Below, piece by piece: positions 16,319 to 51,902 of a stretch of DNA of 64,000 nucleotides. Origin of the DNA: Macrostomum lignano. Its lineage: Eukaryota. The notes under the pieces were generated by a model. The model was not told the origin of the DNA, did not search any database, and saw nothing but the letters and a program-made list of their open reading frames with translations. Location: assembly GCA_002269645.1 (NCBI GenBank), contig NIVC01000018.1, positions 62,001 through 126,000 of the forward strand, read 5' to 3'. Within the stretch, counting starts at the first letter, position 1, and each line of letters opens with the position of its first letter. Position numbers and translations under genes: made by a program.

Positions 16319-18806
16319 TACCGGTTACGAATCGGTAGATTCTTAATTAGCAGCTAAGTGTGCACTTAGACATCTGTAGTTCACAGTTCAGTCCCTGCCA
16401 AGGCCTGAAATCTTTCCAATGCCGAGTTATTTTAACCTTTGTTTGTCATAGCCAGTAAATGACAAGTGCAAGGGTCTCAGCAAGTACAGTGAATACACCC
16501 GAGTGCATTTTCTGTGCGCCATTCGCCGCTGCTTTTCCCGCTAAAATTACTTTCTTAAATAACTAGGAGTATTGCATGTATGTGTAGCAAGTCTGTATTT
16601 GAATATTTCACGGAGGTTTTTAAGACTTGTCTTGATTCCTATATATCCATATGTCCTGTTTTGTTTATTACTTAATAGCTAGCCAGGCTTATTATTTTGT
16701 TTAACTTATTATTTTCCATATTTACAAACTTATATTCAATGCTGCCTGTCACCTGTTGTGCCTGACAACTAAACTCTCTCAGATGCTTTCTCACTGATGT
16801 ACTGCAAATATAATGCATTCACGTCTACAGGCACATGCATACACCTGTAACTCGCTACTGCTCAAAGGTAGCATTTCATTTTTCAAGGTTACATGTAGGT
16901 CCGTGATTAACTCTGGTACATAAAATTGCTTGGTCATGTTTTGGCTTGGTTATTTATGCATGTATTTCATAACTTCTGGGGCACTCTTGTGTAGGTATAA
17001 AGCTTTGCGTACAATGTTTTGCACAATGAAGACTGGTCCTCCTAGTTGTGACTTACAGCAGATAATTCAGTCAGCTGCTGTGTTGGGATTTACTATAAAG
17101 TACTTGAAAATTACTTCATTTTCCACACGAAGTCTCCCAGCTCAGAGCTAGTGAGCCTATTAATTTAGAAGTCGACCTATTAAACTATTCGCAGCTATAC
17201 ATAGTGCGACTGAATTTCAAAGAGCAAATGCTAGAAGCGACTAAAATACGTTTAAAGATACCCTCTGACATTTATTTGACCAAACTGTCGGGACCTTTCA
17301 GTTCGCCAGCAATAGAGGGTTCATCTAAAATCAGAGTTTACATATGGGACAAAGGAAAGGCGAGGACTAGGATTCAGGTTAATTTCTCACTCGGTTTTTG
17401 TGCCTTATTTTTTTCTACGGCAGTAACTATGCTTTTAAACAAACACTTACGTTACCAAAAATATTTTGTCATTTAAAATATACAAACAACCACACATACA
17501 GTTCATAGATATGGAATAAATATTAAATATTGCAATATTTACGAGTACTGTAATTCCTCTCGCACAAACTCCAGTTTCTGATCTGATATTTATTCTTTTT
17601 ACTAGAAAGATGATACCAAACTTCCGAAGACAAAATAACAAAATCTGTCCCGTAAAATTTGGCATCAAGCCATGTGATAAAGTTTAGCATTGTGCTCTAC
17701 GTAGAGACGTAGCATGGTGTTTATGCTTTACTTGCTATTGATAAAGTCTTATTTAAGTAGGCCTATGAAAAGCTTGATGCAGAATATTTTCGAGTTAATA
17801 TTTGACCCAGTCCCAGGCCAGTGTTAAGCTGCTAAAAAAATAAAAAGGCCTAATATAAAGCCAATGCCAAAGACCACTGTGCCTTTGTAAGTGGGATGAT
17901 AATTTAGTTGCATCAAAAGCAATGTCTTGGGCCTATAATATACTAATCAATAATATTAGTTCTAATACATTTTATGCTTGGCCTATTTTTCATTTTCTGT
18001 TAGCCTAGGCCTTGTAAAGTAATAAGTTTTTGGAAAGTTGCAAGTTGAAGGCCTATCTATTCTTACCTCTTAGTCTTACTAGCCTAAAGCTAGGGGACTA
18101 TATAGTATATATATTAAGATAGGGTTTACTTAGCAATTAAACAATAGCTTTCCCTAGGCCTAGCCTAGGCAGATGTTATATAAACTTTCTTGGTTGGTGT
18201 CTATTATTATAATTTTTAATCTATAGATGCATATTAGGATCTTTTAAAAAAAATAGGGCCTAGTGTATAAAATAAAATGCTAACTTTAGGTTCTTTTGGT
18301 AGCATAATAGTCTAGAAACAATAGGGACCTCACAAATTTATATTATTTGAAAAAGAAAAAATGTAAAAATTGATTGTGGTGGTAACCCTATTACTTGTCA
18401 CTATATAGAATGGCCATCTAGATAGTCATGCCGTAGGTAACAGCCTTATCTAGATTAATTGACATGTTGAATTCCTTGTCACTAAAGAAGTTTTGCAAAT
18501 ATGAGGTTAAATAAGCAAGATTTTTAAGTTCCCTTTTAAAATATGCAATGAAATAAAACCATAAATATAAATACCTTATATTCAAAATCCTAAATCCACA
18601 GAGTATGCTTCATTAATAATTAAGCCTAGAAGTGAATATATATTAAAAAAGACAAAAATATATAAAAACTCACTATTTGAAGTGTCTAAATCTTTGGAAT
18701 ATGAATGGAGCCACCAACCAATACAATCTTATCAATCAATTTTTTCTCTAGTTCAGTGTTACATAGCAACTTTTTTACATGTTCAAGCATGCAATAAAAC
18801 AAGTTT

Positions 18807-19053
18807 TTAATTTAGCTCTTCAAAGAGTTTCCTCGTAATAGTTGTGTAAAAGTCTATGCCTTTGTATAGACAATCAAGCTCAATCTTGGTCTGGGCAGTG
18901 CTATTGAGGGTTCGCTTAGTTCTCTTATATGTATTATGCAAATGCCATATTGCATGCTGATAATCACTGTTATCCTTCTTGTTCTTGGTTTCAAACTCTA
19001 GAATGAAGTGGTCTACCATCCTATTGTTGAAGTCTTGCTACCTAGATAGGTGA
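18807..19053 (-). pseudogene. Decayed HSP70 (ATPase-domain) fragment
   Basis: [79 protein letters not shown] aligns to canonical [75 protein letters not shown]. Confidence 0.88.
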
Positions 19054-20020
19054 CTAGAACTTACCTACTGAAGACTTTGGGCCAAAGGTGAATCTTTTTT
19101 AAGTAACACCTGCAATAAATGCTTAGGGCTAGTTGCCTCTGACTAACAGGCCCTAGCTTGACCTAGTTATAGGCATTTGCTAGGTTAATTTTCAAGAAGC
19201 AATAACTGCCACCTAGCTTCTATAAGAGCTCCTTTGGTAGCTTTTAGCCAGTAGATTGTCATCTAGCTGTGGGTTTATTATATAAGAGTAGTTACTGCAG
19301 ACTTGAATTTTTACTATGTCAAACTAATGCTAGGCTTTTGCACTAGGACCACTGGCATTCCATAGTTGTTGAAGTCAATTACCTCCCAGATGCCTTTCCT
19401 AATGCCCTTGTCATAGACATGTTCAAGCTCCTTATGGATAGCAAATAGGACTGGCCGGGCCTTTAAAAGATTGGCCATGTATCTAGCTTGAACTTAAGCT
19501 CCAGTTCAAAGTCCTTGAGGCAACTGGCAACATAGTTTATCTTTCCACTCATCTAGGATCTATCCAAAGCTTGTGGCAGGCTTCCTGTAGTGCCTTGTTT
19601 AGCTTCAAGTAGTCAAAAACCACATTGACCAGCTGGTCAAAACTTGCAGTGCCTATCAGTTGATTGACCAAGATTCCCAACCGCTTCATTGCAGTTTGGC
19701 CCAATAGGTTAGGTTAGACACCTGTGTGACATTGGATATATTTTGGATATTGGAGTATATTGGATGCTGTGCTGAGCAGATGACCTAGACAGAGTTGTTT
19801 TGCCAACTAAAGTTCCCAGGACTAGCATGTCATATTGGCTAGCAAACTTGTAGCACCACTTGGTTTCTTCTAGTGGTGGTATCCCTTGCTTCCTCCACAA
19901 AACTTTGTGATAAATTTGCCATTCATCACCATGTTGATTTCTACAACATGATCTTCACCTTGGATGAAAATTGGCATTTCTAGTTTTGGCATCTTGTGGT
20001 TGATGCTTTAGACTATATAT
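19054..20020 (-). mobile_element. Decayed Ty3/gypsy (Mag-like) pol fragment: protease and N-terminal RT
   Basis: Manual minus-strand translation: CLKDFELELKFKLDTWPIF, YDKGIRKGIWEVIDFNNYGMPVV, CSNYSYIINPQL, GGSYCFLKINLANAYN*VKLGPVSQRQLAL, FTFGPKSSVGKF*; many stops and frameshifts. Confidence 0.75.
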
Positions 20021-21930
20021 ATGGCCAAATGATTGCAGATGTGTATCACTGGCTTCTTAGTAGTGGCCTGGTCTGGTGCAAGCTGCTTGGCCTTAAAAAT
20101 AATATAGCAAGTATATACATTTAGCCATATTTTTATAAAGAAAATTGCAATATAAGCCTATCATAAACAGAGCTTTGGCACATTTTGGAGAAATGAAAGT
20201 ATAATTTTCTAACCTTCAATTTTATTATTTCCTCAAGTATATAATTCTCAAAATCCTTTTATTAATCTTTTGTTCTTTTTAATAAACTTCTCTATCCAAT
20301 GTGGATAGAAGAAAGTGGAGCAAAAGTGGCTTTCCTAGATTCTATAATTTCAGTCAATTCTATAACAAAGTAAATTTTAGGAATGCTACTTTGCTTAAGG
20401 AATGCAAGAAACAAAAATATAATTGCAAACATTTGCATTCTTTACAATTGATATTGTTGACAAATATTATTAAAAATATATTTTTTTTATTCACAACATG
20501 TTTTGCTGTAACTTTCAGCATTGTCAGGTGACAATATTTTGTAATAATTTAAAGGTAATAAATTGACTTGACTTCATAAAAATCATAAAACATTACATAT
20601 CTTGAGGGTGTGTCCCAAATGTGTCAAGAGGAAAACTGGAAACTACTCTAGACATTCTAGATAAAAGTGTCACATAAAAAAGGCTGTAACCTTATTGTAT
20701 TGTACAACAAAAAGTGATTTTGCTAGCAATGACTTTATTGCCTTGCAATCTAACAATTACCTAACTTTCCAAATAAGGGATGTCAACCCCAGGGAGTGCT
20801 CCCCAGGGTCCCAAGGAGCTTGTCAGGGAATACTTCTTGGAGAACTGGACTAGAGACCCTGGGGAGAAAAAAACAAAAAAATGCATTTTGAACTTAATTT
20901 TTGCCATTTAAAAAAAGAAAAAGATTCACAGAAAAACACAACACACATTTGAATGTTTTTCACTACAAGTCTTTCAATCAAGCAAATTGCATGTCGAAAC
21001 CCCTCAGGAAAAAGAAGCCTTATTGGCTATTGTATTGGTCTGCATTGAAGGCTAGATGCATTTGACGCAGGCACAGTGCTATCCTGCCTTAATCATTGAT
21101 ACATAGGGGATGCCATACAATAACAAAATACTCCCTATTAGACAAGGACAAAATGGTCTATTTTTTTTTCTATTCAAGGACATTAAATTCTATATTGAAT
21201 AATAGGCTTAAGAAGCCAAGTCAAGTTTAGTATAAGAAATCCCATATTGAATCCTATATTGAATAGGCTTAGGAATATTAATTATTAATAAAGAACATAA
21301 AAAAGATACAGTTAATTTTGTCTAGATTATATAATTTGTTAATTCTTCAATTAGTTTTATGTTGAAACTTTGCATTGAATCCCGCATTAAATTCCACATT
21401 AAAATGTGTCATTTATCAATGTAGTATTTAATACAGTTTTTACGGTGTAGAACTAAAGTTGTATATATCTTAATATTTTTAAGCAGAGGACTAGGCTAGG
21501 CCTAACAATACTGTACTTGCTTATCATTCATTTATTTTGAAGGTAACATATAGCAAGCTAGCATGTGCTACATCAAATTGCTATTTAATGAAGTCTTTAC
21601 CAACATCTAGATTTGACTTTGCAATTGCATAGCAAGATAGTCTCAATTACAATCTAGAACAATGGTAGTGCCAAGTCTGCCCTCACCAAATAAAAGGCAG
21701 CATCAGGAAAGCTTTGTGGATATAGGGAATCAGACTACCTATTATAGAATTTTTGTTATCTGTCTATTAAATCTAGTAGGTGACACTATAATGAATGAGT
21801 GCAGAGTCTAAACTATACAAGTTTTTTGCTATATTGTCAGCTTGCTTCTGCCAGAGACATTATTGTCAGAGGAGGAGAATTTTAATATAGAAATGTTCCT
21901 TAGTGAGGTGGCACTTAACAAATATACTAA

Positions 21931-22515
21931 TGGGATGGGTGTGTCCTCGCGGTTAAGCTACTGGTTTCTTATTTGCTAAGGATTATGAGTGGATTATTAT
22001 CTGTGGTACTGTTTTAATGTTTGTAGTTCGCTGCCACCAGGTTCCTGCTGTTCCCTAATTCTAGCTTTAGGTTTAAAGAACTGAGTCAGGACACCAATTT
22101 AGATTTAGTTAACACAAAAAGTTTTAATAATAAAAAAAATGGAAATGGTTACTTGATTGTACAAAAGTTTGGTTTTACATTAGTTCCTATACTTAAGTTT
22201 TCTGTTGTGCATTGGGCAAGACTCCCAGTTTATAGATTTAGAGGCAAGACTCCTCTGTGCACGCCTAAATTATATTCCTTTTATTTATTTCCCCTTCTTA
22301 CCACTTTTCTTGTGAGTTTTCCAAGTTCGAAGACACTCCAACAACAACAACTTTTCTTTCCCAAGAGCCCAACTGCTCTGTAGTTCTAAAGGAACCCCAA
22401 TTTTATTTACTTACCCCTGCTCTAATTATTTCCCCGGGTTGAAACTACTGATAGTAGGGTAAAAGCATAATTGGACCCACAAAATTTCCCGTTCCTAAAA
22501 TAATGCCCTACTATA
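21931..22515 (-). repeat. 3' LTR
   Basis: Direct repeat of 29697-30281 (8 substitutions, 2 single-base indels); terminal TG changed to TA. Confidence 0.95.
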
Positions 22516-22525
22516 CCTCCCCCTC
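22516..22525 (-). other. Polypurine tract GAGGGGGAGG
   Basis: Abuts the 3' LTR on the minus strand. Confidence 0.85.
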
Positions 22526-23042
22526 GCTACAAAAATGTGCAAAACCCCCTTTTGTACATTGATGATTATATTTATTAACAAAATTTTAGTTACGTAATAA
22601 GTATTAGTGCGCTTATCAGCGATGTACTGAATATAAGGATTAAGTAAGCAACTATTATGAATATGAAAATGTAATGCGTAAACATGAATTCCTAGACAAT
22701 TAGAGTACAATGCAGGATATATAATGAATTATTGATATTAAGTTGCATATTGCTATATTGCTAAAACAAAACAAAAAAAATTTTGCAGCACACTACAACA
22801 ACAAGATATAAGCATAAGTGGTGTGTATCTTATTAGCATCGGGTTGAGTAATGTTGGCACTATTAAGAATAACATGTAGACATATCAAAAATAGAAAATT
22901 GCACACAATGTAAAATGTGGACAGGTCCTTATGTCAAAAAAAGGAAGTGCTATGATTAAGCAAGGCAGCGATTTAATTCAATTTGTCCCAAGAGATGGTA
23001 AAAATAGCCAATATATAGTAAAATGCAATTCGATTACTCTAG

Positions 23043-23771
23043 TTAGATGTCGTGTACAGGCCGAAGATTATTAGTGTTTTGCGCCGATGCATACAATAAG
23101 CCATTGACCAGGATCATTTGGCGTTCCGGGTCGAATTTTCCCGCCAAGAACTCTAGTTGCTCCATGGTGACGCTCATACTGAAGGGGCCGCGTGCATTAC
23201 TTTCCGCATATTGGAGGCAATAGGTACAGGCTATTTCGTAGCACTTAATTGCCTCCTCCTTGGTCGCTGTCGTTAAGAAACACGCGCAGGCCTCGGGTAA
23301 TTCGGTTTCGAACATACCGGTCTTACCCGTCCTTAGTATGTACTTCTTGAGGGCCCGGCGGCAGCATCGAAACTTCCTCTTTTGCTCTCCTGGGTCTACT
23401 TGCGGCTCGGCTGGCTCCTCTGCTGGTTGCTGTCACTCTTCTTCTTCCTCTAATCTGTCTTCCTGCTGGCTTCTTTCCTCATACTGTTGCACCTCTTCCA
23501 TGAATCTGGTCATCTCCTCTCGGAACGCTTCTTCCTCTCTTTCCGTCTCCCTTTCCAACTCTTCCAAGTCTATGTCCACGACCAGTTTTCCTTTGGGCTC
23601 ACCGCCCTCTTCCGGTTGCTCTAATTTCCACTTTTTACCGCTTGTCGCGACACTATCACTTACTTCTTGAACAGCCCTAATTCTTGGGGGTTCATTTTCT
23701 GAAGCTGCCTGTCTTCCTTGTTGGCCATAGATTCGCTTTTTTGGATAGACGCGGATTGGGGCGTCGACCAT
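23043..23771 (-). CDS. Extra ORF3 of the gypsy element, unknown function (242 codons, one in-frame TGA at 23433-23435)
   Basis: ATG 2 nt after the pol stop; ORFs 23433-23771 and 23043-23315 are in the same frame, separated by a single TGA; acidic coiled-coil stretch then a Cys-rich domain. Confidence 0.65.
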
Positions 23772-23773
23772 AG

Positions 23774-26700
23774 TTATTGAGATTTTGGCTGCAAGAGGTT
23801 AAATGGGTTAAACAACTCCGCTATCCTCTGCACATAACTTTTCTGATTTGGCCTGACTGTTAATCTATCTGGAGCATGACGCTCTCTCGCTGGCCTAGCT
23901 TCTAAATTAATCCCTAGATTATTGTTATTATTTAATTGTACTGGCATAACTCCTTGTACACCTACTAAATTAGTTAGATTATTATTTTGATGCTGCACTT
24001 GTTGATTTGGCACTAACTGCACATTATTTTGATTTTGCACTGGCATAAACTGCTCATTATTTTGATGTTGCACTGGCATAAACTGCACTGCGTCTTCGTA
24101 CTCGTCTTCACTTTCTGAGTCATTGTACACATTCGGCTGGCTATTGGCTAACTGTTCCCTATTGTATTGTTTCCTCTGCTCTTTTGGCTTAGTACTAGCT
24201 TCTTCTTCCTGATAATCTGCTTGCGGTACTTTCATTAAATTGTCTCTATGCATGATAAGTTCTTCCTTTCTAGCCTTCTTATTTTTGGTAACTGGTCTAA
24301 TCTTAAAGACTACTTCTGATAATTGTTCTACAATTTCATAAACTGCCCTCTGTTTTCTGTGAAATTTGTTAGCCTCTGTGTTAGCAATTACTGGATTATT
24401 GATAAATACTAAGCTTCCTACAGGCAATATTTTCGGCTTAGGCTTATTAGAGTACTCCTGCTCACGGTTTTGTTGCACTAATTTTAATCTCTTTCTTGCT
24501 AGTTCTTGGCCTTCCTGCAGATTCTGCTGATGATCCTGGACATAAGATGGCAAATCCTGAAACTGCTTTGGCTCGTTCAGCTCATTGTCACAGGGCATTC
24601 TGGCCTCTCGTCCAAAGACTAAATAGTGCGGACTAAATCCTGTGGCAGTGTGCGTGCTGGTTCTCAGAGCTGTTATGCAACCTGGCAACAGAACGTCCCA
24701 GTTGGAATGCTCCTTCTCCAGTAAACTCTGCTCTACTAAGCCAGATATAACTAGTTGTTCGAGTGTGTCTAAATAGAGGTCAGAAAAGTAAAAATTTCTT
24801 AAAGGCCCTACCAGTGAACTGTGTTCCCTGGTCTGTGTGAATCCATTGTGGAATCCCAAAATCAGCGAAAACTCGTTCTTGTAGAATTTTGATAACTGTT
24901 TTAGCCTTCTGATTCCTAATTGCGAATGCGAATGGAAATTTGCTAGTGCTGTCTATGACTGAAAGTACATATTTGTTTCCGGATTTGCTAGTTTGGCCAA
25001 TAGGTCCTATTAGATCTATGTGCAATCTACCGAATGGTTCGACTACAGGATAGTTCTGAATTGGTGCCTTAATTCTTCGTCTAGTTTTGCTTTCTAGGCA
25101 TGATTTACATTTGGCTACGTAGCGTTCAACTGCTGTTGCTAATCCTGGCCTCCAAAATCGAATTTTAATTCTCTGATAAGTTTTATCTTGACCTAGGTGT
25201 CCCGCTAACGGTGAATCATGGAATTATGGAATTGGTGAAAGACTTCACTATCCAGAGACTTGGGCAACACTACCTTTGGATCAGTCTGCCCCATAGACAA
25301 GTCTACTTTGAGTACGCCGTCCTCAATTCTGAGCAACTCATAGTAACCTAAGAGGTTCCTACAGTCGTGGGTTAACTCTAGTCGTTCTTGAAATGTCGGT
25401 TTAGGCGAGTCATTCTCAATTAAATTTCTAACAAAGCCTACCGCCGGATCGGCTAGCTGTGCTGCGATCAATTGGTCACGGCGAACTGGGCTACGGAGAT
25501 AGTCACTGAGCAGGGCATTGCATGCAGGCGGATTTCCGGTTTTAGGCTCCTGTCCCTGTCTATTGTCTCGCCGACTGCTACTAAAGATCGGAGTATTGTG
25601 TCGGTTCGTGACAGTGTCTTGTGACGAACAGCATGACGGAACTCCACTGCTCGAGCTACAGGTTTCAGCGAACGCGGAATTGCCTGAGCTGACAGTAAAA
25701 GCTGATGCTGGGTCTGTATTCACAGTTGCCCTACAGCTTAGCGACCTGGCATGTGGGGACATCTCTTCCGGTTGAGGATCAGGGATCCTGGATAGGGCGT
25801 CAGCATTCACATGTTTAGGGCCACTTCTATGTTCTATCTCAAAATCAAATTCGGAAAGTCTTTCGATCCAACGACCTAAAATGCCTGTCTGTTCGGTTTG
25901 GCGAAGCAACCAGGTTAGGGCATTGTGACCAGTGCGCACCTTAAAATGTTTTCCTACGAGGTAAAATCTAAAATACTTCAGCGAGTCAACAATCGCTAGA
26001 AGCTCCTTCCTCGTAATCGGATATCTAGTTTCTGACTGCCTCATCTTCCGACTATAATAAGCGATCGGCCTTTCAATGCCGTCGCTCTGCACTTGATTCA
26101 AGACCGCCCCAATTCTGACATTTGATGCATCAGTGTCTAACACAAAATAAACTTAGGGGTCTGTATTGAACTCTGGGTAAGCAAGCACTTCTTCGGAACA
26201 CATCCGTTCCTTCAACAACTCGAAGCATTCATCATGGATCCTGGTCCATTTGTCCTGGATACATTTGATGTTCTTCTTAGTTAACTCACCGAGTGGTGCT
26301 GCTACCTCGGCAAAATCTCTAACGAATTTTCTATAGTAATTACAGAGTCCGAGAAAACTTCGAAGCTCTGTCACAGATTTAGGTTTGGCCAGTTCCTAAT
26401 TGCTTCTAATTTTGACGCATCTCTCTTAATTCCTGTTTTGCCTATGACGTGTCCTAAATATTGTAGCTCTGATTTGAAAAGGTGACATTTCTTAGCCTTT
26501 AGTTTCATGTTAGCTTGTATTAGTCTCTTGAGCACTTCTTTCAGGTGTTCTAAATGGGCTTCGAAATCTGTACTGTAAACTATTACATCGTCTAAGTAAG
26601 CTATGGCGAACTTTTGTGCAATGTCCTTAAGAACTAAGTTCATGCACCTTTGAAAAGTTCCTGGGGCTCCTTGCAATCCCATTGGCAATACTTCGTACTC

Positions 26701-28266
26701 AAACGAGCCTCGATGTAAAGTTGGAAAGCTAGTCTTGCACTTATCTTCTTCCCTAAGAGCTATCTGATAGTATCCCGAAAATAGATCTAACGTAGAAAAT
26801 TGACTGGCTCCATGAAGACATGAGAATGTTTCATTGATATTAGTTATTGGATACGGAAAGTACTCCGATTTATTGTTTAGTGCTCGATAGTCGTTAACTA
26901 ATCTCAGCGAACCGTCTTTCTTAGGTACTATGACTAATGGAGTCGAGTACTGCGAGTAACTAGGCCTAATTATGCCTCTAGCCAACATGAGATCCAACTG
27001 CTCATCTACCTCCTTGATCCAATGAGGTGGAATTTTCCTAGCTGGTATCTGAACTGGGTTGTTGTCCTTCAAGATAATCTCATGAGTGACTAAATGCGTT
27101 CTGCCTAAGTCTAACTCGTGCTGCGAGAAAGCTGCTGAATGTTCCTTGACGACCTCGATCACCTTTTGTCTCTGCTCCTGAGTCAGTTCATTTCCTATGT
27201 TAATCTCACTAATCCAGTCTTCTGACTTGTCCTGTACCTGACTGATCTTTTCTCTGCTTCCGCAAGACTGCGTGCTCTTATTCTGTTCTTCTTCTGGCTG
27301 TTCCTTCAGATAGTTAAGCTCGCTAGCTAAGAGTGGTTTAGCCATCCCAACTAATGCTGATGCTGGTACTCTGGCTTCCTGTGAACTGGTGTTGATCACT
27401 TCTAAATAAGCTTCCCCTTGTCTTAGAGTTACTAAACTTGGCACTACGGTTACTTTCTCTGCTCTAGTCTTTAATCCTGATCTGAGTGGCTCAACAACTG
27501 ATGGCACTCCGAAATTAGTTTCACTACCTGCTGCTAATCTGACTTTGACTAATCCTGAACTATTAGCTGGAACTGTCGTCTTTTCTGCGACATAAATTCT
27601 CCTAACCTGAGGCTTAGCTCTGGTTGATCGAAGCGGAATTCTAGTTCCTTGTTTCATGGTCAGCATTCCTGCATCGAAGTCAATAGTAGTACAATAATTT
27701 TGGACAAACGTCACACCATTGTCTACATCTGCGTCACATAAGAGAAACTGAACTTCCTCTTCGAAATCGCCAAATGTTGCCTTAATAACTACGAAACCCT
27801 TAATTGGAATAGGCTCTTCCATAAAAGAAACAATTATATTATCCCAATGCTTAATTAGATGCCTATTCTTGCCAGTGAAAAGATGCTTCCAGGTTTCGCG
27901 TCCTAAGATATTTCTATTACTGCCAGTGTCTAATAGATAAACTATTTCCTTATTTAAAATGCTGCCAGTGATGTACGGATCGTAACTTTGTTTTTTAGTT
28001 TGTTCAATTATTTTTGGTTGTTTTAGCTGCTGCTTGCTAGAATAAGGTTGCTGTTGTGGTGCGTTCGAAAAGTGCTGAGAATAAATGTTTGGCTGATTAA
28101 ATGATTGATTAAATGATTGCGCATGCGTACTGTTATACACTGAAGAATTCAATTCACTATTTACAGAAAAATTATCGCTGCTATTTACAGGTTGTGAGGC
28201 TACAGACTGTGAGGGATCTACTGCGGGAAAGCGTTGCCTCCGACGCTTCCGTCTACTCCGTTTCCC
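23774..28266 (-). pseudogene. Gypsy pol polyprotein (protease, RT, RNase H, integrase), disrupted
   Basis: LLDTGS protease, YLDD RT, LDTDAS/TRKELLAIV RNase H, GHLG..C..C zinc finger, HIDLIGP/HTDQGTQF integrase. Lesions: frameshift ~26385, in-frame TAA 26153-26155, 8-nt duplication ~25220, small deletions ~24750. Confidence 0.93.
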
Positions 28267-29241
28267 GAATTCTGCTGCTGAGGGTAATGCGGCTGCGGGT
28301 ACTGCGGCTGCATCTGCTGCTGTGGGTATCGGCTGCTGATATCGGCTGCTGATACTGCATCTGCTGCTGAGCCGGGTACCTAAGTTGGTTCTGCGGATGT
28401 GGCTGTCTACAATTCTTAGCTACGTGACCTAGCTTGCCACACCTGTTACACTTTACTGGGGGACGCCCTTGCTGATTCTGGCCTTGCTGCTGCTGTCCTG
28501 ACGGCTGCTGCTGCTTGACCTTATGCTCAACACTTTGGTGGTGTCGGAGTAACTCCTGAAGCACCTTCTGCTGGTTTTCTAGCGCCTCACCCTGTTTGCG
28601 GACCAATTCCTTCAAGCTATTCTCAGCTTCTTCTCCTCCAGTTGCCTTACACTGCTGCGGGTCTCTACCTCGGCGAGACATAGCGTACGCCATTTCAATA
28701 CGTCGCAAGACTCGACGTGTCTCTTGAAGCGAGTTTACCTGAGCTAGTAGTAGCTTCTCTCTAGTCTCTGGGGCAACCCTAACACCTCTAATAAATTGTT
28801 CCACCACCTCTTCCTGTCTCTGATCGTTAGTTAGATGGGGAAACGCCCTGCATGCAGCTCTGTCAGCTTTTCAGCGTAGTCATCAGTGCTTTCAGTTTTG
28901 CACTGGAACCTACTACGGAACTCTTCCCTAGCTTCTTGAGCACTACCTACATGCGTGAATCGCTCGATTAGCCTATCCTTAAAGTCTGCGTATGCTAGAT
29001 TAGGATCTAAATTTAGCCTTGTCACGATAGCGAACGCTGACTGAACATCTAGGTTAGACAGTAGCTCATTCTTCCACTCAGCTGGGGGTATCTTATCTGC
29101 GATACACCTCTGCTCAAAAGCTTGAATCCACACGTCTATATCCTGATTAGGCGTGTACTTTTGGATCCTAATGTGTTTCCTAATGTCTAGCCCGTCTCTA
29201 ATGCCTTCAGCCAGTGCTTCTACTACGTCATTCGCTTCCAT
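28218..29241 (-). pseudogene. Gypsy gag with CCHC zinc knuckle (frameshifted in this sequence)
   Basis: MEANDVVEAL..., retrotransposon-gag-like WIQAFE/FRSRFQ, CNRCGKLGHVAKNC; 1-nt deletion ~28855. Confidence 0.88.
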
Positions 29242-29684
29242 ATTAGTTTAATTTTAGGTTGGATTTTAGAATTAACGCTTCTGGTTTAATAATTTTGGTC
29301 AGTAAATTGGCAAGACTCCGAATTTAGCTGCTAAATTGCCTAATGGTAAGACTTTAGTTAATAAAATAGCAGTGACTCTACTTTTATTACTTCCGCCTTA
29401 CTTCTGGTCTTAATTGAGACCTTACTAATCTTCTAGCGAAGAAACTAAGTTAAAATTCCTTTCAGGAGCGTTAATCCGTTCCTAATCCGTTAATCCGTTA
29501 ATCTGAGATCAGACAATCTTAGATCAACTGACTATGTACATTAATTCTCTAATTTAGAACCTAATTAGTAAATTTGTGTTAGTTTTAGTTCTAATTTCAG
29601 CACATAGGAGTTAATTCGTTAATCCCTTACTAATCCTAAGCTCCAGTCTAATGTATGCGCTTCTCGGGTATTCTAATCCTCTAA

Positions 29685-29694
29685 GCTGCCACCA
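29685..29694 (-). other. Primer binding site TGGTGGCAGC (probably tRNA-Leu)
   Basis: 2 nt inside the 5' LTR; complementary to the ...GCTGCCACCA 3' end recalled for eukaryotic tRNA-Leu(AAG/TAG). Confidence 0.75.
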
Positions 29695-29696
29695 AT

Positions 29697-30281
29697 TGGG
29701 ATGGGCGTGTCCTCGCGGTTAAGCTACTGGTTTCTTATTTGCTAAGGATTATGAGTGGATTATTATCTGCGGTACTGTTTTAATGTTTGGTAGTTCGCTG
29801 CCACCAGGTTCCTGCTGTTCCCTAATTCTAGCTTTAGGTTTAAAGAACTGAGTCAGGACACCAATTTAGATTTAGTTAACACAAAAAGTTTTAATAATAA
29901 AAAAACGGAAATGGTTACTTGATTGTACAAAAGTTTGGTTTTACATTAGTTCCTATACTTAAGTTTTCTGTTGTGCGTTGGGCAAGACTCCCAGTTTATA
30001 GATTTAGAGGCAAGACTCCTCTGTGCACGCCTAAATTATATTCCTTTTATTTATTTCCCCTTCTTACCGCTTTTCTTGTGAGTTTTCCAAGTTCGAAGAC
30101 ACTCCAACAACAACAACTTTTCTTTCCCAAGAGCCCAACTGCTCTGTAGTTCTAAAGGAACCCCAATTTTATCTACTTACCCCCGCTCTAATTATTTCCC
30201 CGGGTTGAAACTACTGATAGTAGGGTAAAAGCATAATTGGACCCACAAAATTTCCCGTTCCTAAAATAATGCCCTACTACA
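29697..30281 (-). repeat. 5' LTR (TG...CA on minus strand)
   Basis: Direct repeat of 21931-22515. Confidence 0.95.
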
Positions 30282-30603
30282 CTAAAATCACCAAATCATA
30301 AATCATTGCTATTCCAAATAAGCCAGACTTAAAAAGCAGAGCACCAAGGCATTTGCCTTCATTAACCTACAGAAATGACAGTTCACACTAAATTCCTAGG
30401 CTCCTTCTTTTCTAGTGGAACAATAGTCTATGGCCAAACCTCACTAAAAAACAAAGCCTGAGAACTCAAAACAAGACCTGTTAACCAGTTAACAGGCCTA
30501 GGAACAAGTCCTGAGAACATTTTAGAACAACTATAATTCGTCAGTTAGTCCATTAGAAGTATAAACTATCAACAGCAGTAATGACCGGTTCATTCTTGCC
30601 AAT

Positions 30604-31894
30604 TCACTCGAACATGATTTCTATGGTATTGGTGTCACCGTGGACAGTCATGTGCATCTTCTTGGTAGTACCATCAGATACAACATCTTGCTCATTGGTC
30701 TGCCCATTGGACTCCATGGCTTCTCCGGCATGTAGAGCGTAGGTCACACGCAAAAGGTCCGGGACATCTAGCCGTATGTACCTCTCAATTGCATTGGACA
30801 AATGTCCAGTGACATGGGCTATATCGTCCCTAGCCAGTCCAGCCCAATGCAACATGCTGGCACAAGTCTTCCTTAAAGACTGGTTTGAGAATTTACTATC
30901 CATAGACATGGGCTTGGTGATATTCGCCACAATGAAGTCGAGAGTACGCCGGCCAATAGGTCCATTCTGGTACCATCTGCCGCTCTTAATGGCAGACTCA
31001 CTTTGAAACCAAGTCAGAAAAAGGTTCTCGTTCTTACATTGCTCCAGTTGGTAGCCGTCGTAGATTTTATAGATGCACGGAAGGCAGCGCTCATGATCTA
31101 GGGTGTGCAAAGCCATGACAACCTTCACAGGACAATTCTTGCTTCTGATCCTAGCATTGTTGGTTTTCGTGCTCCGCTCCTCTCTGTAGACCAACATTTC
31201 CTGGCCATCGTGTAGTTCTAAGCAAATCTCTTTGCCTCTCTTTAGACTGTGCAGCTCTGTACCACCACAAAGTTTGGTACAGGCAAAGTTTTTTTCCGAT
31301 ATAGAACACGAGTGTATACACCAGAGTCTTGGGATTGCCTGTACCAAGGAGTTTCTTATCCCATAGATCTTTTTCCATGTCGAATGGAATTGGGTCAGAA
31401 ACAAACTTTCCAGCAATGTTGCCCTCCTTGGTTGTCTCTTTCATCCCAGCATCAAGCACTCTTCAAGCACCTAGAAAATTGTCATCTTTCCATAGATTCC
31501 AGTTAGTGCCAAGTCCAAAATGTATATGTCGCTGCAACATGTTAAACATATCTCTCAGACTACTCAAGTTATACTTGGTACTGTCAGTTTTTCTAACCTC
31601 AAACAGGAAGGTCTTTAGTAGATAGTTCCAATCTGATTTTCCCCATTCAGAACACTCTTTAAACACAGATAGACTGCAGGCGTCTCCATGAAGCAGTTTG
31701 GTTTGCCTCTCCTGAAACCAGTCGTCAAATAGCTTTAGTGCCCATCGTTCCTTCTGGCATGTTGATTCCGGCACAGCAGCATCAATCCTTTCAGCAACCT
31801 CGTTATCGGACAGTAACGCAAATCTAGAAGCCTTGTTTTCTCTCAATTCAATGTCATTCAACCAGTCAAAAGCAAGTTCCAAGTCGTGTTCCAT
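30604..31894 (-). mobile_element. Decayed Crypton-like tyrosine recombinase (DUF3504/KCTD1-ZMYM-QRICH1 family)
   Basis: VPESTCQKERWALKLFDDW, FLFEVRKTDSTKY, WYQNGPIG, FSNQSLRKTCASML, TGH...AIERY; in-frame TGA 31463-31465 and a frameshift in an A-run near 31290. Confidence 0.85.
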
Positions 31895-32295
31895 GATTCT
31901 CAGTTCTCTCTGATTTTCTCTAGCTGCCCAAACCTTTCCTTTCTTGCTTTTAATTTAAGCATCAAATCTTTTACTTTAATTTTTATGTCTGTGGTTAAAT
32001 GTGGGGGGCTGCGCCCCCCACACCCCCACTTTTGATGAATACCTCACTCCCACTCCCAGGTGCTTCCAATATCTGTAGATTAAGTATGATCTTTGTCTGT
32101 TCTTTTGGTTCCTATGGCAGAGAAAGGCCGAGGATGCTGTTCTCAGGATAAGGCAAAGCCGAGATTACAAAAACAAAAAAAACAAAGATTATATACTTCC
32201 TATACTGTGAAACTAAAAAGCTAGATGTTAATATAGATGCAGCTGGTGTTGAATCTATATCTATGATCTTAGCAAGGAAGTGTAGAATACAAATA

Positions 32296-32929
32296 CACTC
32301 AGCAACATTTAAAACGCAACACTCTAACTAGAAGAAAAATCAACTCACTCAGAAGAGTCAAAGCGCATAGTCTATGGTTCAAATCGAGCTTCAGAAACGC
32401 GTGTAGCTTCCTCTCGCAAGTAACAGGGCGATGACTATGGACTGTTTTCAGATAGAGTGATCCAGCTGAGAGAATGGTTCAACAGATGACAGACGCGGAA
32501 AGATGGCGAGCAGTCGGAATGTTGGAAGCAGGTTGTACTCTTCGAACAACAGCTGTTGTACTGCGAAGTTGGTGAAGCACCGTACCTTTTCTCGCGTGAG
32601 CCACGCTTCCAGTGGCTCTGCTCTTCTGTAGCAGACGTAAAACTGTTGAAGGCGACCTCCCGAAGTGGTTCGCAACTGTTCGAAGAGTACAACCTGCTTC
32701 CAACATTCCGACTGCTCGCCATCTTTCCGCGTCTGTCATCTGTTGAACCATTCTCTCAGCTGGATCACTCTATCTGAAAACAGTCCATAGTCATCGCCCT
32801 GTTACTTGCGAGAGGAAGCTACACGCGTTTCTGAAGCTCGATTTGAACCATAGACTGTGCGCTTTGACTCTTCTGAGTGAGTTGATTTTTCTTCTGGTTG
32901 GAGTGTTGCGTTTTGAATGTTGCTGAGTG
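32296..32929. mobile_element. Palindromic non-autonomous Tc1/mariner derivative (253-bp inverted arms, 128-bp spacer, TA TSD)
   Basis: Arms 32296-32548 and 32677-32929; TA flanks at 32294-32295 and 32930-32931; minus ORF from 32751 MTDAERWRAVGMLEAGCTLRTVANHFGRSPSTVLRLLQKSRATGSVA resembles the Tc1 transposase paired-like HTH. Confidence 0.85.
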
Positions 32930-33917
32930 TATATAAGTCAATCCTGATTGCTGTCTTTATCAAATTTAAGAAGACATTTAATTTCATATATATCACTTGT
33001 CAAAACAACTGGGTTCTATTAACATGGTGCTATAATATGATACAAAAAACTGCTATGTCAACAATAGACAGTAGTCAATAGCACATTTTTCCAAGTAAAA
33101 ATCCCAAACATTTGTCTAAATAGTTGTTTATTTTATAGTTTACTGTATATATGTATAAACATTTGTTTTTCTGGATAATTATATAGTTGTAAAATCAGGG
33201 AACTCTGCACTATATTTCTATAGAATCTATTGTAAAATATTGCAGAGGTCCCTATATTCTTAATTATACCAGTAGTAAGGGGATATAATTAAGAGTATTC
33301 ATTTAAATATATAATTATCATAAGGTATGATTTTGTGCTCAGCATAAATTTATGTTATAGTACCAATATTTTATTTTGCAATCTTTGCATGAGACTTTTT
33401 GCAAGCAATTTAAAGAACCCTAGCTAAAACAATTCAGTTTTGCCATCAACATCAGAAAATTCACCCTAGAAAGCCTTAAGCAAAATAAGACATCAGCAAG
33501 CTGTTTGTCACATTCTCTGGAAGATGTGTTATGCTAAGTGTTTCTGTCTTTTATTGCTGGTCTCAGTTTGTTTGCAAGACTGTGAAGCTTTTTGGAGATT
33601 TTGTGGGTTTTGACCATAGACATGTGTATATATGTCTGCCATCTGGTCTGAAAAAAGTGACACTCAGCTCACACTAAAGTGACACAAAACCAATATTGCA
33701 GAGTTTAACAGGAGTAATCTGTGTTTTCTTTGAGTTCAAAACTTACTTTCTATGGCCAAAACTAACAAATCAACTAACAAGTCAACGCAAAATAAGATAG
33801 TAATTTGCGCTATATATGCCCGAAGAAAGTAGAATGAAATGGAAGGCTCAGTAGCCTTTATAGATTGTCTCTATAGAGTATTTCGGACACGAATAAACAT
33901 TCCCTGGCATCCTTCAG

Positions 33918-40077: not shown

Positions 40078-41253
40078 ATGCACAGCGAAACAATTCAAGT
40101 AGACGATTGGAAGCCCGTCGACGACAAGTACCTGATGCTGACTAATCCGCGCGAATATCGCAAGGCTCGGATGAAGAACCTGAAGCTGGACAGTGTGCTG
40201 CACAAACAGCTGATGGCCTGGCGTAGCGAAGAGCAGCTGGCTCTTGGCCAGCTTCGATTCGCTAGCAGAGAGGCGGAACAGCAGCGGGAGTCGCTGCGCC
40301 AGCAGCTGCTGTTCAGCCGGGCCACCAGTCTGGCCTGCTTGGAGGCGCAAGCTAACGGCGGCGAGTCGCTCAAGAACCAGCTGGCTCGCCTGCGGCAGAG
40401 GTGAATGCACAAACCACTTCTTGTCTACGAGTATTTGCTTGCAGTCACTATCAGCAAGTACGAGCTGACCATTTGCTACATTCCTGCAGTGCCCTTGTTG
40501 ATCCTTGTAGCAGCATCCGGTAGATTCTCGCTAGCATCTAGTAGATTCTCGCTAGCACTCGGTAGATTCTCGTTAGCATCCGGTAGATTCTCGCCAGCAT
40601 CCGGTAGATTCTTGCTAGCATCCGGTAGATTCTCGCTAGCATCCAGTAGATTCTCGCTAGCACTCGGTAGATTCTCGCTAGCATCCGGTAGGTTCTCGCT
40701 AGCATTCGGTAGATTCTTGCTAGCATCCAGTAGATTATTGCTAGCATCCGGTAGATTCTTGCTAGCATCTGGTAGATTCTCGCTAGCATCCGGTAGATTC
40801 TAATCAGCATCCGGTAGATTCTTATCAGCATCCGGTAGATTCTCGCTAGCATCCGGTAGATTCTAATCAGCATCCGGTAGATTCTAATCAGCATCCGGTA
40901 GATTCTTATCAGCATCCGGTAGATTGTAATAAACATCCGATAGACTCCAATCAGCATCCGGTAGATTCCTTTAGGTTTGAGTAGATTCTGTCAGTATCCG
41001 GGAGATTTAATCTATCAGCCAACCCCGCTTCGACAGCTCGGACATCTACGCCTTGGACTACTCAAAATCGGTTCGGCGTCCCCGCAAGACGGCGCAGCAG
41101 CTGCGCCAGGAGGCGGCCCAGCGCTCGGCGGAGAAACTTGAGACGCAGACCCGAGCCGTGCTGGCGGCGGCTTCCGCCAAGCGCCGTAGCGTTGCCGCCA
41201 ACGACATGGCTAGCAGTCGCAGAGACAGCGAAGGCAGACAGCAGAACGCTTGA
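40078..41253 (+). CDS. Small coiled-coil protein (possibly CCDC190-like); exons 40078-40400 and 41019(or 41037)-41253
   Basis: MHSETIQVDDW...EYRKARMKNLKLDSVLHKQLMAWRSEEQLALGQL...; donor AG|GTGAAT phase 2; both candidate acceptors keep frame into DIYALDYSKSVRRP...QQNA*. Family assignment is weak recall. Confidence 0.7.
40510..40960. repeat. 21-bp minisatellite (GCATCCGGTAGATTCTCGCTA)n (also ~46026-46476 and ~50575-51025)
   Basis: Tandem units in the intron of the coiled-coil gene. Confidence 0.92.
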
Positions 41254-41561
41254 TTGAACGGCGATCGGAGCCCGCGGACCCCTGAATCCACATCTGGACT
41301 GGAAAGCTTTATTGTGTCCTTATTTTTCCATTTGCTTAGTACATATACGAGCGTAGCTGAGTGTACGACTTTTCCAGTCCAGATGTTCAGTTCAATGGTC
41401 CATGTCGTAACATATCGTTTTTTCGCTGAGAACAAAACAAATATACCGGAGCACTTTTTATTCTTATGGCACTTGAGCACTTTCAGCTTTTTTAGAATTT
41501 GATTTCTTGGAAAAAGTTTGTAGTAGTAAAAACGGCTGGATAGATAGATAGATAGATAGCT

Positions 41562-41620
<59 letters not shown>

Positions 41621-41644
41621 TTGATTGATTGATTGATTAATTGG

Positions 41645-41680
<36 letters not shown>

Positions 41681-41833
41681 CTGATTGATTGACTGATTGA
41701 CTGATGGATAGAACTCGCCAAGCCTCCCATTATATCGTGAAGCATCAATGCTGAGTCAAGCCATTCAGAAGACAATTTTCCAAGTTGCAATGAACTTTCA
41801 GCGCGTCTAATTGAAGAAATTGAATAACTTGCT

Positions 41834-43964
41834 ATGGCGGGTCCAGTGGCGCTGGTCAGGCGCCTGCTCGCTCACCTGTGGAGTCTGATGTGGAGAGTTT
41901 GGAATTATTTGGCTAGGTAAGTAAAGTGATAGTCAAACAATTCTTGGTTGAGATGCTCTGGGTTGAGATAACAAAACTCTGGGTTGAGATGCCAAATCTC
42001 TGGGTTGAGATACCAAATCTCTGGGTTGAGATACTAAATCTCTGGTTTGAGTTATCAAATCTCTGAGTTGAGATACCAAATCTATGGGTTCAGATACCAA
42101 ATCTCTGGGTTGAGATACCAAATCTCTGGGTTGAGATACCAAATCTCTGGGTTGAGATACCAAATCTCTGGGTTGAGTTATCAAATCTCTGGGTTGAGGT
42201 ATCAAATCTCTGGGTTCAGATACCAAATCTCTCGGTTGAGATACCAAATCTCTGGGTTGAGATGCCAAATCTCTGGGTTGAGATACCAAATCTCTGGGTT
42301 GAGATACTAAATCTCTGGTTTGAGTTATCAAATCTCTGAGTTGAGATACCAAATCTATGGGTTCAGATACCAAATCTCTGGGTTGAGATACCAAATCTCT
42401 GGGTTGAGATACCAAATCTCTGGGTTGAGATACCAAATCTCTGGGTTGAGTTATCAAATCTCTGGGTTGAGGTATCAAATCTCTGGGTTCAGATACCAAA
42501 TCTCTCGGTTGAGATACCAAATCTCTGGGTTGAGATGCCAAATCTCTGGGTTGAGATATCAAATCTCTGGGTTGAGATATCAGTCTCTGGGTTGAGATAC
42601 CAAATCTCTGGGTTGAGATATCAATCTCTGGGTTGAGATACCAAATCTCTGGGTTGAGATATCAATCTCTGGGTTGAGATGCCAAATCTCTGGGTTGAGA
42701 TATCAAATCTCTGGGTTGAGATATCAGTCTCTGGGTTGAGATACCAAATCTCTGGGTTGAGATATCAATCTCTGGGTTGAGATACCAAATCTCTGGGTTG
42801 AGATATCAATCTCTGGGTTGAGATACCAAATCTCTGGTTTGAGATATCAAATCTCAGATATCAGATATCAGATATCAAATCTAAGGTTTGAGATATCAAA
42901 CTTAAGATATCAAGGTTAAGATTTCAAATCTCTGGGTTGAGATACCAGATCTCTGGGTTGAGATACTAAATCTCTGGGTTTAGATACTAAATCTCTTGGT
43001 TGAGATACCAAATCTCTTGGTTGAGATACCAAATCTCTGGGTTGAGATACCAAATCTCTGGGTTGAGATACTAAATCTCTGGGTTGAGATACTAAATCTC
43101 TTGGTTGAGATAATAAATCTTTCGGTTGAGATACCAAATCTCTGGGTTGAGATACCAAATCTCTGGTTTGAGATATCAAATCTCAGATATCAGATATCAA
43201 ATCTCAGGTTTGAGATATCAAACCTAAGATATCAAGGTTGAGATTTCAAATCTCTGGGTTGAGATACCAAATCTCTGGGTTGAGATACTAAATCTCTGGG
43301 TTGAGATACCAAATCTCTGGGTTAAGATACCAAGTCTCTGGGTTGAGATACTAAATCTTTCGGTTGAGATATCAATCTCTGGGTTGAGATACCAAATCTC
43401 TGGTTTGAGATATCAAACCTAAGATATCAAGGTTGAGATTTCAAATCTCTGGGTTGAGATACTAAATCTCTGAGTTGAGATACTAAATCTTTCGGTTGAG
43501 ATACCAAATCTCTGAGATACCAGCTCTGGGTTAAGCTTAAATCTCGAGTTATAACCCGTTCTCCCTGATGAATTCCAACCCTAGTCTCAACGACAACGAC
43601 TGGTTGGCGGCGACATCAAACGAGAATCGCCGGGAGCAGTTGTTCAATGCCAGCATTCAGTCGGAGTCGCTCAGCCTGCCCTGGACAATGGAGATGGCCC
43701 AGCTGCCCGGCGGTACGTTTGACCCTGCATCACTTTCTTGTGCAGCTTATTTAGTCACTTTATTTATCGCCGTCGCCTTCTTACAGAGGACACCTTAGAG
43801 TTTACCTGCGTCTACAATCTGGCACCCGACAGCGGCCTGAGCGACGTGCAAATCGACCGGATTGGCGTCCTGCGCTCTGTCGGTGTTGCCGAGTTTTACA
43901 CCGACTGCCTGGGTAACTGGCCAGCCTTCCTCACGGACTCCCGGGTTGCTGCTCTCGACTGGAG
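41834..43964 (+). CDS. CGRRF1-like exons 1-3, truncated copy 1 (41834-41916, 43585-43712, 43787-43964)
   Basis: Identical to exons 1-3 of the intact copy but with no RING exon in the unit. Confidence 0.7.
41945..43545. repeat. 21-bp minisatellite (AAATCTCTGGGTTGAGATACC)n (also ~47460-48670 and ~52015-53615)
   Basis: Tandem units; the SQPRDLV ORFs are repeat artefacts. Confidence 0.95.
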
Positions 43965-43969
43965 GTGGG

Positions 43970-45448
43970 TGACTGACTGACTGACTGACTGACTGACTGA
44001 CTGACTGACTGACTGACTGACTGACTGACTGACTGACTGACTGACTGACTGACTGACTGACTGACTGACTGACTGACTGACTGACTGACTGACTGACTGA
44101 CTGACTGACTGACTGACTGACTGACTGACTGACTGACTGACTGACTGACTGACTGACTGACTGACTGACTGACTGACTGACTGACTGACTGACTGACTGA
44201 CTGACTGACTGACTGACTGACTGACTGACTGACTGACTGACTGACTGACTGACTGACTGACTGACTGACTGACTGACTGACTGACTGACTGACTGACTGA
44301 CTGACTGACTGACTGACTGACTGACTGACTGACTGACTGACTGACTGACTGACTGACTGACTGACTGACTGACTGACTGACTGACTGACTGACTGACTGA
44401 CTGACTGACTGACTGACTGACTGACTGACTGACTGACTGACTGACTGACTGACTGACTGACTGACTGACTGACTGACTGACTGACTGACTGACTGACTGA
44501 CTGACTGACTGACTGACTGACTGACTGACTGACTGACTGACTGACTGACTGACTGACTGACTGACTGACTGACTGACTGACTGACTGACTGCCTGACTGA
44601 CTGACTGACTGACTGACTGACTGACTGACTGACTGACTGACTGACTGACTGACTGACTGACTGACTGACTGACTGACTGACTGACTGACTGACTGACTGA
44701 CTGACTGACTGACTGACTGACTGACTGACTGACTGACTGACTGACTGACTGACTGACTGACTGACTGACTGACTGACTGACTGACTGACTGACTGACTGA
44801 CTGACTGACTGACTGACTGACTGACTGACTGACTGACTGACTGACTGACTGACTGACTGACTGACTGACTGACTGACTGACTGACTGACTGACTGACTGA
44901 CTGACTGACTGACTGACTGACTGACTGACTGACTGACTGACTGACTGACTGACTGACTGACTGACTGACTGACTGACTGACTGACTGACTGACTGACTGA
45001 CTGACTGACTGACTGACTGACTGACTGACTGACTGACTGACTGACTGACTGACTGACTGACTGACTGACTGACTGACTGACTGACTGACTGACTGACTGA
45101 CTGACTGACTGACTGACTGACTGACTGACTGACTGACTGACTGACTGACTGACTGACTGACTGACTGACTGACTGACTGACTGACTGACTGACTGACTGA
45201 CTGACTGACTGACTGACTGACTGACTGACTGACTGACTGACTGACTGACTGACTGACTGACTGACTGACTGACTGACTGACTGACTGACTGACTGACTGA
45301 CTGACTGACTGACTGACTGACTGACTGACTGACTGACTGACTGACTGACTGACTGACTGACTGACTGACTGACTGACTGACTGACTGACTGACTGACTGA
45401 CTGACTGACTGACTGACTGACTGACTGACTGACTGACTGACTGACTGA
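43970..45448. repeat. (GACT)n microsatellite, ~1.48 kb
   Basis: Almost pure tetranucleotide with one GCCT interruption; starts 5 nt after the donor. Confidence 0.98.
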
Positions 45449-47077: not shown

Positions 47078-47136
<59 letters not shown>

Positions 47137-47160
47137 TTGATTGATTGATTGATTAATTGG

Positions 47161-47196
<36 letters not shown>

Positions 47197-47349
47197 CTGA
47201 TTGATTGACTGATTGACTGATGGATAGAACTCGCCAAGCCTCCCATTATATCGTGAAGCATCAATGCTGAGTCAAGCCATTCAGAAGACAATTTTCCAAG
47301 TTGCAATGAACTTTCAGCGCGTCTAATTGAAGAAATTGAATAACTTGCT

Positions 47350-49089: not shown

Positions 49090-49094
49090 GTGGG

Positions 49095-49997
49095 TGACTG
49101 ACTGACTGACTGACTGACTGACTGACTGACTGACTGACTGACTGACTGACTGACTGACTGACTGACTGACTGACTGACTGACTGACTGACTGACTGACTG
49201 ACTGACTGACTGACTGACTGACTGACTGACTGACTGACTGACTGACTGACTGACTGACTGACTGACTGACTGACTGACTGACTGACTGACTGACTGACTG
49301 ACTGACTGACTGACTGACTGACTGACTGACTGACTGACTGACTGACTGACTGCCTGCCTGACTGACTGACTGACTGACTGACTGACTGACTGACTGACTG
49401 ACTGACTGACTGACTGACTGACTGACTGACTGACTGACTGACTGACTGACTGACTGACTGACTGACTGACTGACTGACTGACTGACTGACTGACTGACTG
49501 ACTGACTGACTGACTGACTGACTGACTGACTGACTGACTGACTGACTGACTGACTGACTGACTGACTGACTGACTGACTGACTGACTGACTGACTGACTG
49601 ACTGACTGACTGACTGACTGACTGACTGACTGACTGACTGACTGACTGACTGACTGACTGACTGACTGACTGACTGACTGACTGACTGACTGACTGACTG
49701 ACTGACTGACTGACTGACTGACTGACTGACTGACTGACTGACTGACTGACTGACTGACTGACTGACTGACTGACTGACTGACTGACTGACTGACTGACTG
49801 ACTGACTGACTGACTGACTGACTGACTGACTGACTGACTGACTGACTGACTGACTGACTGACTGACTGACTGACTGACTGACTGACTGACTGACTGACTG
49901 ACTGACTGACTGACTGACTGACTGACTGACTGACTGACTGACTGACTGACTGACTGACTGACTGACTGACTGACTGACTGACTGACTGACTGACTGA
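49095..49997. repeat. (GACT)n microsatellite, ~0.9 kb
   Basis: Seen directly; GCCTGCCT interruption ~49352. Confidence 0.98.
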
Positions 49998-51626: not shown

Positions 51627-51689
<63 letters not shown>

Positions 51690-51713
51690 TTGATTGATTG
51701 ATTGATTAATTGG

Positions 51714-51749
<36 letters not shown>

Positions 51750-51902
51750 CTGATTGATTGACTGATTGACTGATGGATAGAACTCGCCAAGCCTCCCATT
51801 ATATCGTGAAGCATCAATGCTGAGTCAAGCCATTCAGAAGACAATTTTCCAAGTTGCAATGAACTTTCAGCGCGTCTAATTGAAGAAATTGAATAACTTG
51901 CT

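Follow-up and report, generated by a model that had tools for sequence, protein, structure and literature searches.

The subject of this analysis is a 64,000-nucleotide stretch of the Macrostomum lignano genome (the window; contig NIVC01000018.1 of assembly GCA_002269645.1, positions 62,001 to 126,000), which carries a minus-strand Ty3/Gypsy long terminal repeat (LTR) retrotransposon at 21931–30281. After insertion, the 3′ LTR of this element underwent CpG transitions on both strands, and its 5′ LTR kept all of its CpGs. The best reading of this one-sidedness is the identity of the two LTRs as 5′ and 3′ within a decayed domain, rather than one flank carrying a mark, because the decayed LTR follows element orientation whichever flank is the poorer in CpG. 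A CpG-poor neighbourhood sets the amount of decay, and element orientation sets which LTR decays. Probably, a methylated repeat domain covers the 3′ end of the element, and the promoter in the 5′ LTR keeps methylation off this LTR and off gag-pol. The features of the element and its flanks are as follows.

21927–21930, plus strand: left copy of the target-site duplication (CTAA), from the pairwise LTR alignment
21931–22515, minus strand: 3′ LTR, bearing all 8 derived substitutions, 6 of 13 CpGs lost
22516–22525, minus strand: polypurine tract adjoining the 3′ LTR, recognised by sequence and common to the family copies
22516–24000, minus strand: 3′ internal zone of raised CpG loss, from comparison with family copies
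23046–23798, minus strand: third open reading frame (ORF), split by an in-frame stop at 23433–23435
23777–28419, minus strand: pol, with reverse transcriptase (RT), RNase H and integrase in Gypsy order (Pfam)
24501–29696, minus strand: protected body, in which 4 of 168 family CpGs are lost, a level equally low in other copies
28256–29247, minus strand: gag in two frames, with a Retrotrans_gag match below cut-off and a zinc knuckle (Pfam)
29685–29694, minus strand: primer-binding-site-like motif, recognised by sequence, identifying the right LTR as 5′
29697–30281, minus strand: 5′ LTR (presumed promoter), 13 of 13 CpGs retained
30282–30285, plus strand: right copy of the target-site duplication (CTAA), from the pairwise LTR alignment
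18001–21930, no strand: left (3′) flank, an AT-rich block of old repeat remnants with an observed/expected CpG ratio (o/e) of 0.08
30362–31960, minus strand: right (5′) flank, a putative Crypton-like tyrosine-recombinase element, 54 of 85 family CpGs lost

Paired LTRs, a target-site duplication, a primer site, a polypurine tract and gag followed by RT, RNase H and integrase are all found, as in Ty3/Gypsy elements. As the primer-site motif adjoins the right LTR internally and the polypurine tract the left one, the right LTR is the 5′ and the left the 3′ LTR, in agreement with the strand of the ORFs. The matching 4-base CTAA duplication on both sides indicates a single insertion. Frame changes and stops at 26153–26155 and 25205–25207 interrupt pol, and neither piece of the third ORF has a Pfam match. 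The only promoter sign found was a TATA-like motif at LTR position 282; heat-shock elements were searched for in this LTR and not found.

Over 585 aligned columns, the LTRs differ by the eight one-sided substitutions described in the initial annotation; at 8 of 8 sites, T or A stands in the left LTR where the right one has C or G. Six of them are at CpG (21940, 22004, 22140, 22211, 22303 and 22418), one is at CpT (22407) and one at CpA (22514), the last altering the terminal dinucleotide of the left LTR. The left LTR has lost 6 of the 13 CpGs of the right one. By chance, an 8:0 split between LTRs has p = 0.008, and at least six of eight substitutions at CpG among C/G positions p = 5e-5. CpG sites of the 3′ LTR were hit about 20-fold more often than other C/G sites (6/26 versus 2/~200), and 6 of the 8 changes are G>A on the sense strand. 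Such CpG-concentrated transitions on both strands bear what appears, from sequence, to be the signature of methyl-CpG deamination. A genome search for related LTRs, in which 40 of 294 candidates were scored, yielded solo LTRs of about 91% identity (one insertion present on contigs C278, C1221 and C85, and a second on C730) which have the right-LTR base at all eight sites; the left bases are therefore derived, as had been proposed. A recombinant origin of the LTRs from two subfamilies was rejected on account of the matched target sites, the single substitution class and the outgroups agreeing with the right LTR.

The locus was assembled three times with the same flanks, in the window contig (C18), in C721 (which overlaps C722) and in C1180. 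The C721 version has all eight left-LTR changes, and the 5′ LTR shows zero substitutions among C18, C721, C722 and C1180. Two one-base indels, absent from the initial annotation, also separate the LTRs; that after 22022 is missing from the C721 version and from the short-read contigs of 4/4 runs, so it is likely an assembly error. Contigs of two of the four short-read runs extend from unique flank through 21940 and are identical to the window, and two of the four runs show the C1180 base at 21933; both flank-anchored types are thus supported. At 22004, 22140, 22303 and 22407 the short-read contigs have the right-LTR base only. As such contigs drop rare variants, these four interior left-LTR bases rest on two assembled versions. 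Between 17600 and 33300, differences of the window from C721, C722 and C1180 come in switching blocks. Methyltransferase genes also occur in threes, which together with the three locus versions suggests three sub-genome copies, with mosaic assembly or exchange. Letters at 21413 and 21444 are private to the window contig, missing from the other versions and from 4/4 runs, and are likely assembly errors.

CpG loss continues from the 3′ LTR into the element. Compared with family copies, 13 of 56 CpGs are lost at 22516–24000 in the window, 13 in C721 and 11 in C1180, nine of them common to all three; seven other family copies lost 0–4 there. The 3′ LTR plus 1.5 kb together lost 19 of 69 CpGs, versus 4 of 181 in the body plus 5′ LTR (Fisher p = 1e-8), and decay fades about 2 kb into the element from the 3′ side. 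According to the initial annotation, the in-frame stops fit the same process. The stop in the third ORF is in the zone of high decay; that in pol is in the zone of low decay, and its position lends this idea no support.

Both flanks are decayed. Repeats in the left flank have lost CpGs kept by copies elsewhere (e.g. 12/14, 6/6 and 6/10), and no open stretch of more than 81 amino acids was found at 17500–21930. The right-flank copy of the putative Crypton-like element, so labelled from weak DUF3504, phage integrase and QRICH1 matches, lost 54 of 85 family CpGs (64%), and nine other copies keep o/e near 1.0. Of the 8 CpGs in the 240 bp closest to the right LTR, 7 are lost, as against 0–2 per bin in the nine other copies. 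The right flank has an o/e of 0.46 versus 0.08 for the left, a rough proxy, as 0.46 conceals the 64% loss. The 5′ LTR adjoins this decayed right flank, yet 0 of its 13 CpGs were lost. The Crypton-like element is present in many copies, some of them internally deleted.

Orientation dependence was seen in a survey of 61 other LTR pairs representing 59 insertions (this family contributed 14 pairs, RT-hit elements 26 and LTR searches 21). Of fifty RT-hit elements, 15 lacked a repeat pair, and another 9, being tandem or multi-hit repeats, were set aside. Among 18 family stretches, 11 had no pair, and C827 was not counted. C321, C4188 and C1285 were excluded as versions of insertions already counted, C550 and C1165 are one insertion, as are C2708 and C2295, and the choice of nine pairs rested mainly on search scores that were unequal, in one direction or the other. 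Of the CpG transitions, 3′ LTRs had 40 and 5′ LTRs 7 (p = 1e-6), as against 34 and 38 of the non-CpG transitions. Counted by insertion, the split was 11 (3′) versus 2 (5′) (p = 0.022). The bias was seen on both contig strands (29:4 and 11:3) and in five of six family groups, the sixth having no CpG change; the nine elements set aside have CpG changes of 8:2 (3′:5′).

Surroundings determined how much was lost. As flank o/e falls, 3′ loss rises (Spearman −0.38 with the lower flank o/e, p = 0.004, n = 57). The tables by flank class comprise 56 rows with both flanks measurable and exclude C550 (one 5′ change), which is kept in the headline counts. With both flanks below an o/e of 0.35 (5 insertions), CpG changes were 24:2 (3′:5′); with the 5′ flank alone low (4 insertions) 3:0, with the 3′ flank alone low (6 insertions) 6:0, and with neither low (41 insertions) 5:3. 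Per CpG, this corresponds to 5 changes on 1284 CpGs for the 41 normal-flank insertions versus 24 on 286 for the five depleted on both sides. The initial annotation had proposed that LTR asymmetry would track flank o/e, which was not borne out, as LTRs on the side of the poorer flank had 21 changes and those on the other side 22. Where the 5′ flank was the poorer, changes still numbered 21 (3′) versus 4 (5′).

Two insertions contributed most. In C1035, with an o/e of 0.0 in both 700-bp flanks, changes were 15:2 (9 C>T and 8 G>A); those of the 3′ LTR are spread over its whole length and the two of the 5′ LTR lie within its outer 4%. In C46, with flank o/e of 0.16 and 0.05, they were 9:0. The bodies of both elements are near family background where alignable, and raw o/e sags over the last 1.5–2 kb. 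Without C1035 and C46, CpG transitions were 16 (3′) versus 5 (5′) (p = 0.027). Solo LTRs in the most depleted flanks lost 3/11, 4/11 and 2/10 CpGs versus 0–2 elsewhere, which is only suggestive and is confounded by subfamily divergence. In C1035 (187200–193400), several internal kb align poorly to family members, possibly owing to a nested insertion, and this stretch keeps an o/e near 1.0 between depleted flanks.

The proposed course of events starts with the post-insertion CpG transitions on both strands. It is established chemistry that 5-methylcytosine deaminates to thymine, and germline 5-methylcytosine probably lies behind the CpG loss. C5 methyltransferases are encoded in this genome. 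A profile search gave 12 exon-level matches to PF00145 (DNA_methylase) on 9 contigs, and ADD_DNMT3 matches lie beside DNA_methylase matches on 3 contigs. CpG-poor surroundings would lead to most decay, with orientation picking the LTR. The ADD domain of DNMT3 reads unmethylated lysine 4 of histone H3 (H3K4), and H3K4 methylation blocks DNMT3 through this domain. Active-promoter chromatin with H3K4 methylation, or bound transcription factors, may keep the 5′ LTR and the CpG-rich body unmethylated, as an island. From the 3′ side, methylation would reach about 2 kb inward; on the other side, it would go no further than the outer border of the 5′ LTR.

Several points weigh against this explanation. 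Its basis is a mutational record. The protected zone exceeds 5 kb, which is long for a promoter mark. Flank o/e is the rough proxy noted above, and the decay of the right flank, for which no date can be given, may be older than the insertion. The survey signal is concentrated, as 24 of the 40 3′ changes come from two insertions and most pairs have none; three pairs (C221, C2549 and C550) have a 5′ excess of one change each, and versions of the C46 insertion disagree, C4188 having 2:1. At the locus itself, the C1180 version has all six CpGs intact in its 3′ LTR. This version shares the terminal change with the window, is ambiguous at 22407 and has its own change at 21933. As C1180 has the internal CpG losses too, its clean 3′ LTR is most simply the result of later LTR-to-LTR conversion or a polishing effect. 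Finally, the versions show no substitution across about 28.1–32.5 kb, apart from three of C722 in the right flank, so that the 5′ LTR was sampled only once.

An unlikely alternative is that transcription of the element itself targets methylation to its 3′ end, either in the manner of gene bodies, through trimethylated lysine 36 of histone H3 (H3K36me3) and PWWP domains, or linked to termination. The 5′ LTR would be spared as the start site, and nothing would enter from the flanks. A bias that tracks element orientation, a loss that rises toward the 3′ end and the 3′ changes found where the 5′ flank alone is depleted (3:0, n = 4) agree with this mechanism. It does not explain the strong dependence of loss on surroundings, nor that most of the transcribed body is spared. 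Moreover, CpG is not depleted in the six coding stretches of the host within the window (o/e 0.74–1.27), and the methylated domain therefore seems to be based on repeats, not on a gene body; the region around the element looks intergenic by sequence.

Entry of methylation solely from the CpG-depleted left flank, with the right LTR clean because the right flank is unmarked, was the model of the initial annotation and now appears improbable. The CpG loss in the left flank and the gradient over about 2 kb inward do support a mark spreading from this side, the left flank is the more depleted of the two, and the right-flank decay could have preceded the insertion. That the left flank is the sole source is not supported, however, since 54 of 85 CpGs were lost on the right, and it does not explain the one-sidedness, as the 5′ LTR is clean beside a decayed flank. 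With changes split evenly between poorer and richer sides in the survey, and still on the 3′ side where the 5′ flank is poorer, the model is largely refuted as a general rule.

Less plausible still is decay of both ends followed by gene conversion, sub-genome exchange or assembly collapse, which would have reset the 5′ part and the 3′ LTR of C1180. The switching blocks, the identity of the three versions over about 28.1–32.5 kb and the 3′ LTR of C1180, the interior of which equals the 5′ LTR and the substitutions of which lie at its extreme ends, would be in line with such a reset. Against it, no donor was found, as no identical LTR is present elsewhere among the 40 of 294 candidates scored and the nearest others are 91% identical; conversion and polishing have no known reason to track orientation across families and contig strands; and the right flank within the identical block is itself decayed.

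Repeat-induced point mutation (RIP) alters both copies of a repeat, and editing of the APOBEC type acts on one strand and in non-CpG context. Chance, sequencing error, APOBEC-like editing during reverse transcription or a RIP-like process is very improbable, although there are only eight sites, four interior T/A bases are missing from short-read contigs and 6/8 changes are G>A on the sense strand, given the CpG specificity, the changes shared with C721 and the replication in other insertions; the single LTR hit, the CpG context and the involvement of both strands speak against RIP and APOBEC-type editing in particular.

Elsewhere in the window, an inverted repeat at 32293–32932 with 256-nt arms, 98% complementary and 128 nt apart, may be a young foldback element. 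Zero CpG was also found in a second short block at 33001–33500, just upstream of a purine nucleoside phosphorylase-like gene (~33.9–35.65 kb). At 40400–55000, 8- and 21-nt minisatellite blocks recur about 5.5 kb apart together with repeated ORFs, one of which (41058–41636) has a weak HOCHOB match (E = 0.007).

Neither the chemistry, which is textbook knowledge, nor LTR asymmetry, which has precedents in mammals, is new, and this limits the surprise. Here, the C>T and G>A changes at CpG on both strands, familiar from the decay of repeats, are restricted to a single LTR and to 2 kb at the 3′ end of an element. In the parts of Rebollo et al. 2012 (PMC3491417) considered here, identical LTRs of one mouse ETn/MusD or IAP provirus differ in methylation, methylation is heavy on 5′ LTRs and low on the 3′ LTR, which lies near a host start site, and proviruses far from genes have mostly symmetric LTR methylation. 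In contrast, the 5′ LTR is spared here whichever flank is poorer, on mutational evidence. Human endogenous retrovirus HERV-E 5′ LTRs in placenta are described as less methylated than their flanks, and protection by transcription factors was proposed (PMC1950553). The likeness is that flank methylation ends at, or fades just within, the 5′ LTR edge; the difference is that this concerns somatic tissue of a globally methylated genome, and the passages in question contain no germline mutation record or LTR-pair bias. For primate endogenous retroviruses, rates slightly higher in 3′ than in 5′ LTRs at 10 loci were ascribed to selection, and single-rate dating was criticised (PMC3048862); that text offers no CpG explanation and never uses the word CpG, whereas the bias reported here is about 6-fold, CpG-specific and context-dependent. 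An LTR of a Macrostomum lignano Ty3/Gypsy element, of the same superfamily as ours, was demonstrated to have promoter activity in vivo (PMC12801592); the LTR studied here has no three-unit heat-shock element. In 2022, the patterns of methylation in free-living flatworms were still unknown (PMC9246332). For invertebrates, a 3′ LTR bias that is CpG-specific and set by orientation was not encountered in a partial coverage of the literature, which is weak evidence of absence.

LTR pairs offer a sequence-only readout of where germline methylation acted in this flatworm, with the prediction that, inside methylated repeat domains, the 5′ LTR is unmethylated and the 3′ LTR methylated. Ages from LTR divergence would be inflated for copies in such domains and the usual dating skewed, because 6/8 differences here are CpG changes on one LTR. 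More tentatively, repeat-rich domains of several kb, not gene bodies, may carry methylation in this flatworm and fail to silence LTR retrotransposons, each element keeping its promoter and gag-pol free of methylation as a polarised island, so that only its 3′ end decays. In three LTRs of one group (L211, L198 and L228, of 10-kb Gypsy elements), the first third is CpG-poorer (o/e 0.49–0.74) and has a TG/CA excess, as expected if progeny inherit decay of the 3′ U3; the deficit is present in 3/3 LTRs of this group, whereas 5 LTRs from four other groups show no clear deficit. If the tentative scenario is true, the situation would be the reverse of the vertebrate and plant pattern, germline methylation would be recorded genome-wide in the LTR pairs themselves, and progeny would receive promoters that carry the decay of the 3′ U3.

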